Below, in pieces: positions 54,186 to 62,125 of a stretch of DNA of 64,000 bases (the stretch's first letter is position 1; the number at the start of each line of letters is the position of its first letter). The notes under the pieces were generated by a model that worked only from the letters and a program-made list of their open reading frames with translations, was not told the DNA's origin and did no database searches. Both the position numbers and the translations under genes were made by a program. This DNA comes from Microcoleus sp. (GTDB taxonomy: Bacteria > Cyanobacteriota > Cyanobacteriia > Cyanobacteriales > Microcoleaceae), in assembly GCA_042408215.1 (NCBI GenBank), contig JAYFMW010000014.1, positions 1 to 64,000 on the forward strand, in the 5' to 3' direction.

Positions 54186-55595
54186 CTACAACTGCTTCAC
54201 CTCAGCAACCAATTTGGCAACCACATCCTTAGCGCTACCAAACAACATCATCGTCTTATCCTTATAAAACAACTCATTGTCAACACCCGAAAAACCAGCA
54301 CTCATCCCGCGCTTAATTACGATCGTATGCTTAGCCTTATCAACCTCCAAAATCGGCATCCCATAAATCGGGCTCGCCGTATCGTGACGCGCCGCCGGAT
54401 TCACCACATCATTCGCACCAATCACCAACGCCACATCCGTCTCTTCAAACTGCGGATTGATATCGTCCATATCGTACAACTGCGGATAAGGCACGTTTGC
54501 TTCTGCTAGCAACACATTCATGTGCCCCGGCATCCGCCCAGCCACCGGGTGAATCGCGTATTTGACGTCAACTCCCATTTTTTCCAAACCGTCGGCTAAC
54601 TCGCGCACGGCGTGTTGTGCTTGCGCTACAGCCATCCCGTAGCCCGGAACGATCACAACCGATCGCGCATAACCCAACATCATCGCACTTTCTTCAATAT
54701 CAATGCTGTGAACAGTTTTGTCGATCGCCCCAGCAGCAGCCCCAGCAGCCCCAGCACTAGCACCACCGCTACCAAAGGCGCTAAACAACACGCTAGAAAG
54801 CGATCGATTCATCGCCTTACACATGATTTGCGTCAAAATAATCCCCGACGCGCCAACAAGTGCACCAGCGATAATCAGCATATTGTTCATCAAAATGAAC
54901 CCAGCCACACTCGCCGCAATCCCCGAATAGGAGTTAAGCAGCGACACCACCACCGGCATATCGCCGCCCCCAATCGGGAGCACAAACATGATTCCCAGAA
55001 TATTGGAAATCGCCACCAAAGCCAGGAATACCGGCACATTCTCCGGATTCGTCAGCATATAACCGCTGCCCGCTAAAAGCGCGATCGCCAGTAAAGCATT
55101 AAACGGCTGTTGTAGCGGAAACGTGACAGGAGCACCAGGTAGCAATTCTTGCAGCTTCGCAAACGCCACAACGCTACCAGTGAAAGTAATCCCGCCAATC
55201 AACACACCCAAAAGGATCGTGATTGTCGCGTCTGGAGTCGGCGATTCCGGGATGCTGAGATAGCGCCAGAATTCGCCCACAGCAACGAGTGCAGAAGCCG
55301 CGCCCCCAAAACCGTTAAGCAAACCCACCATCTGCGGCATATCCGTCATCGCCACGGTTTTCGCCATAATTGTTCCCAAAATGGAACCGATGATAATTCC
55401 GACAGCAATCAATTCGTAGCTGACTACTTGTTTTTCCAGCAACGTACCGACGATCGCAATCAACATCCCGATCGCAGCTAACACATTTCCTTGACGGGCG
55501 GTTGCGGGCGATCCCAACTGTTTCAAACCGACAATAAACAAAGATGCGGCAACTAAATAACCTAGTTGAATGGCACTTGGCAGAAAATCACTCAC
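54186..55595 (-). CDS. pntB: NAD(P) transhydrogenase beta subunit
   Basis: GGDMPVV, VPGYGMAVAQAQ and HPVAGRMPGHMNVLLAEA. Confidence 0.97.
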   Translation of the reverse strand: MSDFLPSAIQLGYLVAASLFIVGLKQLGSPATARQGNVLAAIGMLIAIVGTLLEKQVVSYELIAVGIIIGSILGTIMAKTVAMTDMPQMVGLLNGFGGAASALVAVGEFWRYLSIPESPTPDATITILLGVLIGGITFTGSVVAFAKLQELLPGAPVTFPLQQPFNALLAIALLAGSGYMLTNPENVPVFLALVAISNILGIMFVLPIGGGDMPVVVSLLNSYSGIAASVAGFILMNNMLIIAGALVGASGIILTQIMCKAMNRSLSSVLFSAFGSGGASAGAAGAAAGAIDKTVHSIDIEESAMMLGYARSVVIVPGYGMAVAQAQHAVRELADGLEKMGVDVKYAIHPVAGRMPGHMNVLLAEANVPYPQLYDMDDINPQFEETDVALVIGANDVVNPAARHDTASPIYGMPILEVDKAKHTIVIKRGMSAGFSGVDNELFYKDKTMMLFGSAKDVVAKLVAEVKQL

Positions 55596-55637
55596 GCTTT
55601 AACCTCTAACTCTTTTCTCAGACATTTCTTGAAAATT

Positions 55638-56927
55638 TCATACAAACGAGTAGTTGTATCCATCGTTTCGTTGAACAGGCTTAATTTGATTCCGAGAAAC
55701 GCTAATCACAGTAGTGTCGTTTACTCGAATATCAAAATTTCCTTTAAACCTTGTGGTTTTAATTCGCTTGCATTTAACCCCCTCATACTTGCCGTCAATT
55801 ACAGAGACAATATCTCCAGTTTTCCAACCTTTGACCTTTTTTTTGGGCTGATAACCCTTGCGAGGAAAACCATATTTATCAGTCTGTACAACTTGGCGAC
55901 TCCCCCAACCCATAGCTTTAATTAGCAAAGGTTGATTGATTGCCAAAGTTAAACCCTGACTCACATCTCCGCAGCAAGCAGCATCTATCCAATGAGCCTT
56001 TGGTAAACCAAGTTTAGTCCGATTGAACTTAGTTAAAGAACCACGTCCTACATATATATGCTCGAGTTTTGTAGCCTTTAAAACTTCGAGCAAAGCAGAT
56101 TTAGTAGCATTGACCGCCGCCGCATCCTTTAATGGTGCTTTAGCTTGACTCATTATTCTTTTAAGAAGATCAGGCTGGCTTTTCAGAAAGTCTTTGATGT
56201 CTTCAGTCCCCTTTTTGATATTGCATTTTTTACAAGCCAAGCACAGGTTAGAAACACGATTGCTACCACCTTTAGCGCGTGGGTTCATATGCTCTACCTG
56301 TAACGGTAAATTTTCAGCACTACAGTAAGCACATTTGCGATTCCACTTTTCAAGCAGGTATTCTCTAACCTCATAACCTTGCAGTTCCCCTTGTTGATAT
56401 TCAATACCATAAACTTCAGGGCTTTGCATTTTTTGAGTATCAAACTTTACCAACTCAAAAGCTATTGATTTAATTGGTGCTAACTTACAAAGGCGATTCA
56501 CCCAGGTAATTGTAGTTAATACTCGATGCTGCAAACTTGGAGGTAGCCAACCTTTCCGACGAATACGATTAAAAAATCGCAGCTGACGATAACGAGTCTT
56601 ACGATTACGGCGGTTGCGTCGGATGGCACGGCGAGTTTCCAGTCGCGATTTGATAGCTTGCCCCCGATGGGTAAGTTCAGCACCCCAAATTACTTGGGTT
56701 AAGAACACCAAAGCTATACCAGTAGTTTTACTACCAGGATCGATGCGAATTTCTATTGGTTGTGGTTGTTCCTCTACTGATTTGTTGAGGATGATTGCAA
56801 ATGGGTACAGTCTGAAAACTTTTGCTTTGCCTGCATTTAATAGCTTTCTAGCTATCACTGGCAGGCACGGGGTTAAAGGTTTCTTCCTGCTATCGAGTAC
56901 GAATACTTGATTGGGATTTTTAGACAT
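55638..56927 (-). CDS. iscB: IscB RNA-guided endonuclease (Cas9 ancestor)
   Basis: PLTP, IDPG (RuvC-I), Arg-rich bridge helix, ELVKFD, CAYC..EH..N..CKKCN (HNH) and HWIDA. Confidence 0.95.
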   Translation of the reverse strand: MSKNPNQVFVLDSRKKPLTPCLPVIARKLLNAGKAKVFRLYPFAIILNKSVEEQPQPIEIRIDPGSKTTGIALVFLTQVIWGAELTHRGQAIKSRLETRRAIRRNRRNRKTRYRQLRFFNRIRRKGWLPPSLQHRVLTTITWVNRLCKLAPIKSIAFELVKFDTQKMQSPEVYGIEYQQGELQGYEVREYLLEKWNRKCAYCSAENLPLQVEHMNPRAKGGSNRVSNLCLACKKCNIKKGTEDIKDFLKSQPDLLKRIMSQAKAPLKDAAAVNATKSALLEVLKATKLEHIYVGRGSLTKFNRTKLGLPKAHWIDAACCGDVSQGLTLAINQPLLIKAMGWGSRQVVQTDKYGFPRKGYQPKKKVKGWKTGDIVSVIDGKYEGVKCKRIKTTRFKGNFDIRVNDTTVISVSRNQIKPVQRNDGYNYSFV

Positions 56928-57125
56928 GGTTGCGTCTATTCCTAATTAGTAAAGGTTGCCTTGGCATTGTTATTGGTCGGTATGATCTCAACAGCACTGG
57001 CTTTACAAAATCCTTGCCTGTTTAACTGCCGAGTTATAGAGCTTGGGGCTGGCACGTACTCCAAGGTATGAACTTGAACGCTTGCCAATAACGAAAGCCT
57101 GGACTTACTTAGAATTTTCTGGGTT
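56928..57125 (-). ncRNA. IscB omega-RNA (HEARO-like) scaffold
   Basis: Directly upstream of iscB; CGTTAT..CATACCTTGGAGTACGTGCCAGCCCCAAGCTCTAT..GTTAAACAG..CAGTG..ATAACAATGCCAAGGCAAC. Boundaries approximate. Confidence 0.75.
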
Positions 57126-57138
57126 TATTCAGAAATGT

Positions 57139-57435
57139 CTAGGATTTGAGTAAGTCTTTTTTCTTGAACATTTGTAGCATTCGATCGGTGACTAAGAAAC
57201 CGCCGACAACGTTAATTGTGGCAAGGGCGATCGCGATCGTCCCCAAAATCGAAGTAACAGTCACATTACCTTGGCCTGAAATTAGAATTGCGCCTAAAAC
57301 CGCAATTCCTGAAATCGCATTGGAACCCGACATCAAAGGTGTGTGTAGCGTCGGTGGGACTTTGTTAATTACTTCAAATCCCACAAACGATGCTAGAGTA
57401 AACACCACTAAACCTGCAATCAATCCTTCTGCCAT
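57139..57435 (-). CDS. pntA: NAD(P) transhydrogenase alpha subunit, part 2
   Basis: LHTPLMSGSNAISG and GGFLVTDRML. Confidence 0.95.
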   Translation of the reverse strand: MAEGLIAGLVVFTLASFVGFEVINKVPPTLHTPLMSGSNAISGIAVLGAILISGQGNVTVTSILGTIAIALATINVVGGFLVTDRMLQMFKKKDLLKS

Positions 57436-57441
57436 AATACT

Positions 57442-57615
57442 TGGTAATTGGTAATTGGTTATTTGTCATTAGTCATTAGTTGTTAGTCATTAGTCATTAG
57501 TTGTTAGTCATTAGTTGTTAGTCATTAGTTGTTATTTTCAATGACTCCCGACTCCCGACTACCGACTACTAACTACTAACTAATGACTACTAACTAATGA
57601 CTAATGACTACTGAC
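57442..57615. repeat. STRR tracts (AGTCATT / TAATGAC)
   Basis: Directly visible, with inverted orientation. Confidence 0.8.
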
Positions 57616-58763
57616 TAATGACTGCTGACTGCGGAAGCAGCCAAAGCATCCCGCACTCGCTGGTTACTAATTTCACCATCACGAGCCACACAGGAACCAG
57701 CGATGATATCGTCTTCAAAATTCAGATTTAGCTCCTTATCTTTCAGCATCAACTGAAGCAAAGACGAGACATTCTTCGAGTAAGTTTCACTAGCATGAAC
57801 AGGCATTGAGGATGGTAAATTAATCGGGCCAATCACATTAACACCGTTCCATTCAACATCTTTTCCTGCTTCCGTGCACTCGCAATTGCCGCCTTGCTCG
57901 GCCGCGAGGTCAACAATTACTGCTCCCGGTTTCATTTGAGAAACCATTTCTCTAGTCACTAAAATCGGTGCTTTTCTACCAGGAACTTGAGCCGTTGTAA
58001 TCACCGCATCGGAAGCACCGACGTGCTGGGTGAGCACTTGACGGGTGTGTTCTTTAGCGGCTTCTGATAATTCTTTAGCATAGCCGCCTGCTGCTACAGT
58101 TTCTTCTTTGAGTTCGACATCAATAAATTTAGCACCCAAACTTTGCACTTGTTCTTTTGTTTCTGGGCGGATGTCAAATGCTTCGACTACTGCGCCCAAA
58201 CGACGCGCCGTGGCGATCGCCTGTAAGCCCGCAACGCCCACACCCATTACCAAAACTTTCGCGGGGCGAATCGTACCCGCCGCCGTTGTCAGCATCGGAA
58301 AATACTTCGGTAAAGCCGCTGCTGCGATCAATACCGCTTTGTAACCGGCGACGTTAGCCTGAGATGACAGCGCATCCATGCTTTGAGCGCGGCTGGTGCG
58401 CGGGATCATTTCCATACTGAATGCAGTCACTTGGCGATCGGCTAAACGCTGTACCAAAGCCGGATTTCCCAAAGGATTCAAAAATCCGATGAAAACTGCT
58501 CCTTCCCGCAGTTGATGAACTTCTGACTCTTGCAATTCCCCGATTTTGACGACGACATCAGCTTCGCCCCACAGCGTAGCGGTATCGGCGACAATCTGAG
58601 CTCCGGCTTCTTCGTAAGCCAGATCCGAGAAAAAGGATTTTGCTCCGGCACCGGCCTCAACCCAAACTTGGACGCCTTGTTTTACCAATTTGGCCACAGC
58701 GTCGGGTACTAAAGCCACCCGGCGCTCGCCTGCTGCTATTTCTTTTGCGATCGCTAATTTCAT
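57615..58763 (-). CDS. pntA: NAD(P) transhydrogenase alpha subunit, part 1
   Basis: ERRVALVP, SMDALSSQ and GVGVAGLQA; ATG at 58763. Confidence 0.97.
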   Translation of the reverse strand: MKLAIAKEIAAGERRVALVPDAVAKLVKQGVQVWVEAGAGAKSFFSDLAYEEAGAQIVADTATLWGEADVVVKIGELQESEVHQLREGAVFIGFLNPLGNPALVQRLADRQVTAFSMEMIPRTSRAQSMDALSSQANVAGYKAVLIAAAALPKYFPMLTTAAGTIRPAKVLVMGVGVAGLQAIATARRLGAVVEAFDIRPETKEQVQSLGAKFIDVELKEETVAAGGYAKELSEAAKEHTRQVLTQHVGASDAVITTAQVPGRKAPILVTREMVSQMKPGAVIVDLAAEQGGNCECTEAGKDVEWNGVNVIGPINLPSSMPVHASETYSKNVSSLLQLMLKDKELNLNFEDDIIAGSCVARDGEISNQRVRDALAASAVSSH

Positions 58764-59230
58764 AAACAAACTCGGTAAGTGGGAAACTCAGTGGCTTTAG
58801 CCCGCTCGTGGGAAACGACCCTTCGACTGCGCTCAGGGCGACGCACGAGCGGTTTTAACCGCTTTGAATAACTTGTTTTATTACCGCCTTGGAGTTGTTC
58901 AATTCGGTGTGCTTTTGTGATGCACTTTCAATGGGACAGTTACCATTTCAAATTTCACAACCCTGTACGCATAATAGTTTTGCTCGATTGACAAGCCTCC
59001 CATTTCTGGGGTAATGTTAGCTTCGACCTGTTATAAGAGCTTGTTGGGCTTGCAACACTGTTCCAGTGACCTTAGAACTGTTTAATCACAAGCGACAGAG
59101 CGGGGAACTAGCTACGCATTCGCCCGGTGTCGTGACTCAAATAACGGCTCCTCTTACGAGGGGTCTGGTCAATACGGCTTGCGAGAGATTTCTCTTACAA
59201 GCTCAGTCCCTTTAGGGCTGGGTTACTGAC
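58764..59230 (-). mobile_element. Protein-less IscB-type element carrying a stand-alone omega/HEARO RNA
   Basis: Minus strand GTCAGTAACCCAGCCCTAAAGGGACTGAGCTTG..TTGACCAGACC..CGTTAT..GACACC..GAATGCGTAGCTAGTTCC..TTAAACAG..ATAACAGGTCGAAGCTAACATTACC; parallels 56928-57125. Confidence 0.75.
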
Positions 59231-60845: not shown

Positions 60846-62125
60846 CAGAGAATTGGGTAGAAACCCCGTCCTTTAGGACGGCTTTACATTTAATATGTTA
60901 GTATGTGAAGTATGGAAAAAGCTCACCGTTACCGATTTTACCCAACGCCTGAACAAGAGTCGCTATTGCGACGCACATTGGGCTGCGTAAGATTGGTTTA
61001 CAACAAGGCTCTCCACGAGAGAACCCAGGCTTGGTACGAGAGACAAGAAAGAGTTGGATACAACCAGACTTCTTCTATGCTGACTCAATGGAAAAAAGAG
61101 GAAGATCTTGATTTTCTGAATGAGGTTAGCTGCGTACCATTGCAACAAGGGCTTAGACATCTTCAAACTGCTTTCACTAATTTTTTCGCAGTCAGGACTA
61201 AATATCCCAACTTCAAGAAGAAACATCATGGTGGCAGTGCTGAGTTTACTAAATCGGCTTTTAAGTTCAAAAATAAAGAAATTTATCTTGCCAAAAACTC
61301 TGAGCCATTACCGATTAAATGGTCTAGACAAATTCCCAAAGGATGTGAACCGAGCAGTGTAACGGTTAGTCTCCATCCCTCTGGACGCTGGCAGATCTCG
61401 ATTAGGTTTGATGCTCCAACGATTCAACCTTTGCCCATTAGCGACAATTCTGTAGGAATAGATTTGGGAATAACGAGTTTGATTGCGACCAGTAATGGTG
61501 ACAAGATCGCTAATCCCAAGCATTTAAAAAAGCATCTAAAGCGTTTGAAGAAAGCGCAAAAGAATCTTTATCGTAAACAGAAAGGTTCCAAAAACAGAGA
61601 AAAGGCGAGAATTAAGGTTGCTAAAATTCACCTGAAAATCTCCGACGATCGCAAAAATTTATTGCATAAGTTGACAACTCAATTGGTCCGCGAAAATCAA
61701 ACAATTGCTGTTGAGTCGTTGGCGGTTAAGAATATGGTCAAAAACCCTAAACTCGCCTTGGCTATTTCTGATAGCGGATGGAGTGAATTGATTCGACAAC
61801 TGGATTACAAATGTCGTTGGTACGGAAGGAAATTGGTCGCAATTGACCGATGGTTTCCTAGTTCCAAGCGTTGTAGCCACTGTGGGCAGATTGTCGATAA
61901 AATGCCTCTTAATATTCGTGATTGGACTTGTCCGAGTTGTGGTTGTAACCACGCTCGGGATGTCAACGCAAGTAAAAACATTTTGGCCGCTGGACTAGCG
62001 GTGTCAGTCTGGGGAGCGAGTGTAAGACCAGAGCAGAGTAAATCTGTTAAGGCTTCTGCTATGAAACAGAAACTTAAATCGTGAGGTTTAGGAATCCTAG
62101 CCCTTTAGGGCGGGGAGGATGTCAA
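60846..62125 (+). mobile_element. IS605-family element with tnpB, no tnpA
   Basis: CTCAT|CAGAGAATTGGGTAGAAACCCCGTCCTTTAGGACGGCTTT left end; GGAATCCTAGCCCTTTAGGGCGGGGAGGATGTCAA right end. Confidence 0.88.
60912..62084 (+). CDS. tnpB: TnpB RNA-guided nuclease (intact)
   Basis: YRFYPTPEQ HTH, GIDLG, AVESL, CSHC/CPSC zinc finger and RDVNA. Confidence 0.95.
   Translation: MEKAHRYRFYPTPEQESLLRRTLGCVRLVYNKALHERTQAWYERQERVGYNQTSSMLTQWKKEEDLDFLNEVSCVPLQQGLRHLQTAFTNFFAVRTKYPNFKKKHHGGSAEFTKSAFKFKNKEIYLAKNSEPLPIKWSRQIPKGCEPSSVTVSLHPSGRWQISIRFDAPTIQPLPISDNSVGIDLGITSLIATSNGDKIANPKHLKKHLKRLKKAQKNLYRKQKGSKNREKARIKVAKIHLKISDDRKNLLHKLTTQLVRENQTIAVESLAVKNMVKNPKLALAISDSGWSELIRQLDYKCRWYGRKLVAIDRWFPSSKRCSHCGQIVDKMPLNIRDWTCPSCGCNHARDVNASKNILAAGLAVSVWGASVRPEQSKSVKASAMKQKLKS

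Follow-up and report, generated by a model that had tools for sequence, protein, structure and literature searches.

IscB is the RNA-guided ancestor of Cas9. Canonical ISC elements begin with GTCA, have subterminal hairpins and are followed by 4-nt targets (PMC4810608), and the targets of Y1 transposases measure 4-5 nt and are read by guide pairing (Meers 2023). IS607 ends have been described as imperfect subterminal inverted repeats lying at unequal distances, with short direct motifs, a 2-bp core and no target site duplication (TSD; PMC6188088). The IS607 serine resolvase is reported to occur with tnpB and not with iscB (Meers 2023), and a 2026 review lists IscB under IS605 only (PMC13565253). 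Here we analyse a 1,550-bp element, consisting of iscB and its omega-RNA, that is inserted in the pntA1-pntA2-pntB transhydrogenase operon on a contig of Microcoleus sp., of which a stretch of 64 kb (hereafter the window) was studied. The element has moved recently, it inserts at GAG, and its ends resemble those of IS607 elements of the same genus. We regard it as probably a non-autonomous IscB-omega-RNA element that has IS607-type ends, is mobilised in trans by an IS607 serine transposase and persists through RNA-guided homing.

Boundaries, GAG target and recent mobility of the element

The element occupies positions 55607..57156 on the minus strand and is delimited by empty alleles at pnt and at three other sites. 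Empty alleles of three sites place the insertion at N|GAG and give its length as 1,550 nt; at the fourth site GAG is replaced by GAA and GAT in the two relatives that could be used, and at the site on contig C7 only one of seven relatives was close enough to be read. The pnt locus is empty in 22 of the 25 rows from the genus, where the PntA2 tail reads KKKEVKA* and its stop overlaps the pntB GTG start, and filled in three (once in the genome under study, G000, and twice in G020), where the tail reads KKKDLLKS*. An initial annotation, made from the letters of the window, had proposed that removal of the cassette restores KKKEVKA* with the overlapping stop, and that insertion swaps EVKA for DLLKS and uncouples pntA2 from pntB; the comparison of filled alleles with the 22 empty ones agrees with both statements.

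The target GAG (55604..55606, minus strand) is host-derived, lies within the GAGG ribosome-binding site of pntB, follows all 19 of the 3'-end rows and is the predicted target-adjacent motif (TAM) of the nuclease. All 16 5'-end rows start with GAC. The GA dinucleotide common to element start and target (57155..57156, minus strand) is a candidate crossover core, across which the boundary may slide 2 nt to the left; the base preceding it is variable (A at 9 of 14 distinct sites). The TC that had been noticed on both outer flanks is present at 55605-55606 and 57155-57156. There is no target duplication beyond this GA, which is a 2-nt microhomology only, and over 12 nt on each side the insertion flanks (14 distinct upstream, 17 distinct downstream) share nothing except GAG, the fourth target base being free (commonest base 6/17).

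The imperfect inverted repeats that had been reported at both ends were recovered by a repeat search as 24-nt arms at 55606-55629 and 57131-57154, 75% complementary. Their exact 10-mer core occurs twice in the window, once per end, at 55620-55629 (plus strand) and 57131-57140 (minus strand); the chance expectation is 0.17, and two occurrences were reached in 4 of 100 shuffles. Alignment of homologous ends, which had been suggested as a check, showed the box retained in each of the 16 rows for the 5' end and its inverted partner in each of the 19 for the 3' end. Box 1 of the 3' end, GACATTTC (55621..55628, plus strand), stands 14 nt from the GA/TC core and is conserved in all copies, and box 2 (55631..55636, plus strand) follows 10 bp further in, degenerate here and GACAAT in most copies. 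Most copies have a direct repeat of the short box at the 3' end, where two TGTC boxes lie 10 bp apart, and a single box at the 5' end. The 5'-end box, likewise GACATTTC (57132..57139, minus strand), stands 15 nt from the GA core and also lies inside the first hairpin of the omega-RNA.

Carriers of the element make up 13 of the 79 genomes of the genus, and since two copies with 100% identity sit at unrelated sites, movement must have been recent. Two of four public runs (X1 and X14) contain a joint that skips exactly 1,550 nt, the empty allele, beside filled junctions. Contigs of X14, an RNA library, span both junctions of the element, although contigs are no proof of transcription; no circle joint occurred among the contigs of the four runs, and contigs drop rare forms. 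Within the genome under study, a search for other elements, including miniature inverted-repeat transposable elements (MITEs), with the same ends returned only the two iscB copies. The second of these (L042, G000:C7:92385-93934) is 89% identical and lies ~10 nt past the stop of a co-oriented gene that reads as sigma-factor-like. The exact end pattern gave 13 matches in genome contigs, namely 12 Microcoleus/Oscillatoriales loci on element-bearing contigs and one chance coding match, and the extra one-mismatch matches in 144 genomes of the family were coding or isolated, at control level. A rough scan of open reading frames placed a co-oriented gene upstream of most, but not all, of 14 copies.

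IscB and omega-RNA are of ordinary IscB/HEARO types. The iscB gene (55638..56927, minus strand) encodes 429 aa with RRXRR and HNH Pfam matches and with matches to IscB structures in the PDB, and it scores 449 bits against NF040563 (cut-off 175), which bears out the claim that it is intact. Residues D63, E158, H213, H312 and D315 are invariant among nine aligned relatives and presumably catalytic; the nearest named relatives of the protein belong to the cyanobacteria Microcoleus and Tychonema. Directly upstream and bounded by the element end lies the HEARO-like omega-RNA scaffold (56949..57156, minus strand), which aligns from 57156 with HEARO model positions 1-211 at 70.8 bits (E 9e-14), under the gathering score of 83. 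Its first 8 nt pair with nt 48-55 (57149-57156 with 57102-57109); across 11 aligned copies 98.8% of the cells in the helix are paired, and the pairs hardly vary, giving no covariation signal for this stem. The initial annotation had described an omega-RNA lacking both GTCA and a 5' hairpin: the first part stands, as the RNA starts with GACT, while the second does not, given the 8-bp 5' stem and an alignment beginning at model position 1. The predicted guide (57157..57176, minus strand), placed on the basis of IscB biology, corresponds to the 3' end of pntA2, and at 14-16 nt its single match in a genome scan is this very site.

Likeness of the ends to IS607 elements

The ends were compared with 92 IS607 tnpA loci in 22 clusters, comprising 23 from the genome under study, the 29 best matches of a search through 61 genomes and 40 selected manually out of ~330 matches, mostly in carrier genomes. 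The IS607 subfamilies of the genus (L121-L143, L236-L304) have GG, AG (after G), TG or CC as cores and targets such as GAG, CTG and HIP1-like sites. Many of these loci carry GACA/TGTC boxes, and the element shares with IS607 of its genus the same boxes 10 bp apart and at the same distance to the junction. Cluster 4 (21 loci) inserts after GAG in all 16 located left ends, and its right end, TGTC-6-TGTC followed by 15 nt and AG, equals the 3' end of the element read through its GAG. Cluster 2 also has a GAG target, with ends of the form AG+25+GACA and TGTC+15+AG.

We scanned 290 IS607 end regions (45,270 positions) with a matrix made only from 3' ends of the iscB element, 10 distinct ones, and clusters 0 and 4 filled all of the top 12 places with genome tails of 2e-7 to 1.8e-5. 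The matrix matches to five of five available cluster 4 right ends (tails 5.4e-7 to 3.6e-6) fall exactly on the terminal AG, and those to the cluster 0 left ends, in the reverse orientation (2e-7), lie inward of the terminus by one helical turn; a 14-nt matrix of the 5' box matched six of six cluster 4 left ends. Further features of IS607 ends are present as well: an imperfect subterminal inverted repeat at unequal distances (boxes 15 and 14 nt from the core), helically phased direct motifs (the 3'-end TGTC boxes, 10 bp apart) and a dinucleotide common to ends and target, which is GA at all sites and not the GG of IS607. The genome under study also holds a short non-coding IS607-type element in six copies (G000:C5:370575, C5:363613, C6:743728, C6:423293, C12:36482 and C30:227806), with boxes 14, 24, 34 and 44 nt from a GG core.

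Two further groups of cyanobacterial IscB loci bear on this likeness. The HIP1-site family, represented in the same genome by four loci (L384, G000:C5:441800-443500; L385, C21:56300-58000; L386, C30:110300-112000; L387, C5:413300-415000), inserts together with its Scytonema relatives at HIP1-like GCGATCGC sites (one empty allele, G007). Its 3' end is the reverse complement of the left end of IS607 cluster 7 in five of five members (29-37 bits), and in three members its 5' end is an in-register match to the right end of cluster 7 (1.3e-6 to 2.7e-6); cluster 7 is present in the genome under study too (L140, L142). This family gives the clearest indication that IS607 ends can occur on IscB elements. 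A third non-GTCA family (L059-L088, in Moorena and Calothrix) has ends with repeated GGTAA(A/T)T-type boxes, which resemble those of IS607 cluster 3 (a weaker match, 8e-7) and of Okeania IS607 left ends (L655, L657).

In a quick tree, the GAC/GAG type groups with proteins of Okeania and Paraprochloron in a clade of 16 rows (SH-aLRT 100). The 15/14 box spacing of this type recurs in relatives whose proteins are 60-63% identical (Dactylococcopsis and Okeania copies), and the Okeania copies retain the spacing with a changed box word on both sides. A single origin of all non-GTCA cyanobacterial IscBs had weak support in one quick tree (SH-aLRT 86) and did not reappear in another; the trees left out rows with stops, short matches or short flanks, and their end labels came from crude patterns, some of them wrong (L046, L048, L043). 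On balance we favour the view that cyanobacterial IscB-omega-RNA modules were recruited more than once onto IS607 serine-recombinase ends (the GAC/GAG, HIP1-site and probably Moorena clades), each with a one-base junction difference that may serve the nuclease as a self/non-self signal.

Proposed mechanism, candidate partners and alternative vehicles

Movement by an IS607 serine transposase is the most likely explanation for the IscB element. TnpA(Ser), supplied in trans, would bind the GACA/TGTC boxes, excise a double-stranded DNA circle and insert it at GAG. The exchange could take place in either of two registers, across the GA shared by both ends, or across AG, the core of clusters 2 and 4, with the AC of the circle remaining at the left junction; both would leave GAC at the filled left junction and GAG in the empty allele. 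Read-through of the pnt operon would then yield a guide from the 3' end of pntA2, with which IscB would cut empty alleles (guide plus GAG) and spare its own junction (guide plus GAC), and repair from a filled chromosome copy would restore the element. A precedent comes from CboIStron, for which IS607 TnpA was reported to insert a GC-core donor at the normal target, leaving the donor core on the left and G on the right (GC and GG junctions; 10.1101/2023.11.20.567912). These non-matching junctions show the same pattern as GAC/GAG here. The bias of iscB towards co-orientation in operons is already described, and the position within an operon would follow from the derivation of the guide from upstream transcription (Meers 2023).

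The candidate partner has been narrowed but is not pinned to one cluster. Cluster 2, whose tnpA is stop-free in the genome under study (L129), occurs in 8 of 13 carriers against 9 of 66 other genomes (p 6.5e-4) and, among IS607-rich genomes, in 7 of 10 carriers against one of eight others (p 0.025), in tests that were chosen after inspection of the data and that ignore kinship. Cluster 0 has four near-identical copies in the genome under study. Sequence outside the boxes is only partly alike, and so none of clusters 2, 4 and 0 is a proven partner. Because it encodes no serine TnpA, the element is filed as IS607-like and non-autonomous, and not as an IS607 member.

A series of observations weighs against an IS607 origin of the ends or against particular partners. 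By chance, matrices made as controls from canonical iscB ends attain 2.9e-6 and 3.7e-6, although seemingly not at IS607 termini; a 28-nt matrix of the 5' end reaches only 2.3e-5, and the conservation of the 5' box is not independent evidence, as it lies in an omega-RNA hairpin. The cluster 2 right end scores only 1.4e-4. Cluster 4, the best match, is absent from the genome under study and from 9 of 13 carriers (4/13 carriers vs 6/66 others, p 0.054), cluster 0 matches in the opposite orientation without co-occurrence (2/12 vs 7/49), and clusters 2 and 4 are both missing from five of the 13 carriers. IS607 is moreover abundant in carriers overall (median 9 vs 3 matches), and related genomes are not independent. 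A serine transposase lies inside the element in 0 of 316 iscB loci, so no autonomous copy was found; two serine and three Y1 matches lie 0.3-2.0 kb away, none inside the element, and the sole strong serine match is 1.6 kb beyond a canonical end. No other element with the same 3' end was detected at ≤1 mismatch in the 144 family genomes, and a look by eye over Okeania, Prochloron, Paraprochloron and Dactylococcopsis revealed no clear IS607 with the changed box word in Okeania or Prochloron. The autonomous partner with the same ends that the initial annotation had suggested looking for failed to appear in the genome under study, the family genomes or the genome contigs. Finally, excision in the CboIStron assay was blocked when the cores were mismatched (10.1101/2023.11.20.567912).

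The vehicle first envisaged for this IscB was of the TIR/MITE type, in which a DDE transposase would act either on ~23-bp imperfect terminal inverted repeats (TIRs) with a 2-bp GA duplication or on in-register TIRs with a 1-bp A duplication in G-A-G. We consider this unlikely, even though both ends begin with CT when read one base outward, the GACATTTC box then occupies positions 16-23 on both, and the junction sequence alone cannot separate a crossover core from a short duplication. Some DDE elements with TIRs are known to carry TnpB (PMC13565253, PMC10691335). The repeats here, however, are imperfect and subterminal, their middle is poorly conserved between the ends and the 10-bp-phased second box is found at one end only, whereas the IS607 ends of the genus match in word, spacing and target, and the HIP1-site family matches IS607 at both ends. 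An element combining these ends with a DDE gene was not found in the genome under study, in the 144 family genomes or with the exact pattern in genome contigs, and to our knowledge no DDE family has a fixed GAG target with a 1-bp duplication.

Slightly less probable again is a divergent IS200/IS605 (ISC) element moved by a Y1 TnpA, with GAC/GAG as a one-base variant of GTC/GTG ends. The pair GAC and GAG does resemble GTCA and GTGA of ISC elements (PMC4810608), no TSD is present, as in IS200/IS605, the 5' end folds as a hairpin and the genome contains 20 Y1 matches. Yet the GTCA terminus is absent, 16 of 16 rows beginning with GAC, and the terminal 60 nt, compared for 12 distinct 3' ends, have folding energies of -1.2 to -5.2 kcal/mol, weaker than those of 9 of 10 canonical ends (-5.4 to -13.1 kcal/mol), and no subterminal DNA hairpin in common. 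In place of a fixed 4-5 nt target, GAG alone is fixed, and its free fourth base contrasts with the 4-5 nt guide-paired targets of Y1. Since there is no GTCA end, no conserved 3' subterminal hairpin and a target of only 3 nt, the initial annotation was right in proposing for this IscB a vehicle different from canonical IS200/IS605. A recombinase vehicle of the IS110/IS1111 type, with subterminal inverted repeats and a 2-bp core, is very improbable: that architecture fits the element in outline, but the 14 and 17 distinct flanks share only GAG over 12 nt per side, and RNA-guided IS110 targets are longer than GAG.

The pnt operon and relation to known systems

The minus-strand operon comprises pntA1, pntA2 and pntB, with the HEARO-like RNA and iscB between the last two genes, co-oriented with the operon as had been annotated. 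Its first gene, pntA1 (57615..58769, minus strand), would drive read-through into the omega-RNA; no terminator-like sites were found on the minus strand between 55600 and 58200; the promoter and terminator scan stayed at chance level. The final five codons and stop (DLLKS*) of pntA2 (PNTB_4TM; 57139..57435, minus strand) come from the element, and the intact pntB (54186..55595, minus strand), whose start formerly overlapped the pntA2 stop, now begins 42 nt past the iscB stop. The altered PntA2 tail and the uncoupling are probably mild side effects, as both MFKKK and the pntB ribosome-binding site GAGG are preserved; retention of that site and persistence of the insertion in two genomes suggest a low cost, and the consequences for the operon are of secondary importance. 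No relevant literature on the PntA C-terminus was found. The same pnt insertion in G020 (L038, G020:C1:3374700-3377900) has its iscB split by a 1.6-kb insert that reads as a group II intron remnant.

Elsewhere in the window, between pntA1 and pntA2, 7-bp tandem repeats form a long inverted pair (57427-57630). A canonical stand-alone HEARO/omega-RNA element with a GTCA start and without iscB (58764-59230, minus strand; 135.9 bits) has many relatives in the genome, and its target ATGA is apparently the start codon of pntA1. A stand-alone tnpB of the IS200/IS605 type lies at 60912-62084 on the plus strand (NF040570, 361 bits).

A literature search, with Altae-Tran 2021 and bioRxiv supplements outside its scope, returned no report of IscB with IS607-type ends, and three further sources hold nothing contrary (PMC10691335, PMC9755519, 10.1101/2023.08.09.552727). 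The published surveys consulted assign iscB to Y1-type IS200/IS605 elements alone (Meers 2023; PMC13565253); they were based on counts of neighbouring genes and would miss non-autonomous elements that can be recognised by nothing but their ends. If the proposed origin is true, the mobility history of the Cas9 ancestor changes, IscB, like TnpB, would have two unrelated transposase partners, and part of the many iscB loci without a nearby tnpA would gain their missing vehicle. The 429-aa IscB is further predicted, from the conserved target, to use a short G-rich TAM (GAG).

Among described systems, the ISC2/IscB-omega-RNA (HEARO) elements (Kapitonov 2016, PMC4810608; GstIscB, Meers 2023; OgeuIscB, PDB 7xht) share with the element a single iscB with RuvC and HNH, an upstream omega-RNA bounded by the element end, a guide from the 5' flank and a target motif at the 3' flank, the lack of a TSD, and co-orientation with the upstream gene; the GAC/GAG difference parallels GTCA versus GTGA of these canonical elements. 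Unlike them, the element starts with GACT and not GTCA, has the 3-nt purine target GAG instead of an ATGA/GTGA-type one, and lacks a 3'-end DNA hairpin, carrying subterminal inverted boxes and 10-bp-phased repeats. The IS607 family (IS607, IS1535 and ISC1926, PMC6188088; CboIStron, 10.1101/2023.11.20.567912) resembles it in the unequal imperfect subterminal inverted repeat, helically phased motifs, short shared core, absence of a TSD and purine-rich target, and the local subfamilies also in box word, spacing and GAG target. However, the element has no serine tnpA in cis, its shared dinucleotide is GA (or AC/AG) and not GG, and its cargo is IscB with a 5' omega-RNA, as opposed to TnpB with a 3' RNA. 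IS607 clusters 2, 4 and 0 (e.g. L129, L282 and L121) come closest in their GACA/TGTC boxes and in TGTC+15 nt+core at the right end, and clusters 2 and 4 also in insertion after GAG; their left end, core+24/25 nt+GACA, is one helical turn longer than that of the element, and unlike it they encode TnpA(Ser) and TnpB and are only partly alike outside the boxes.

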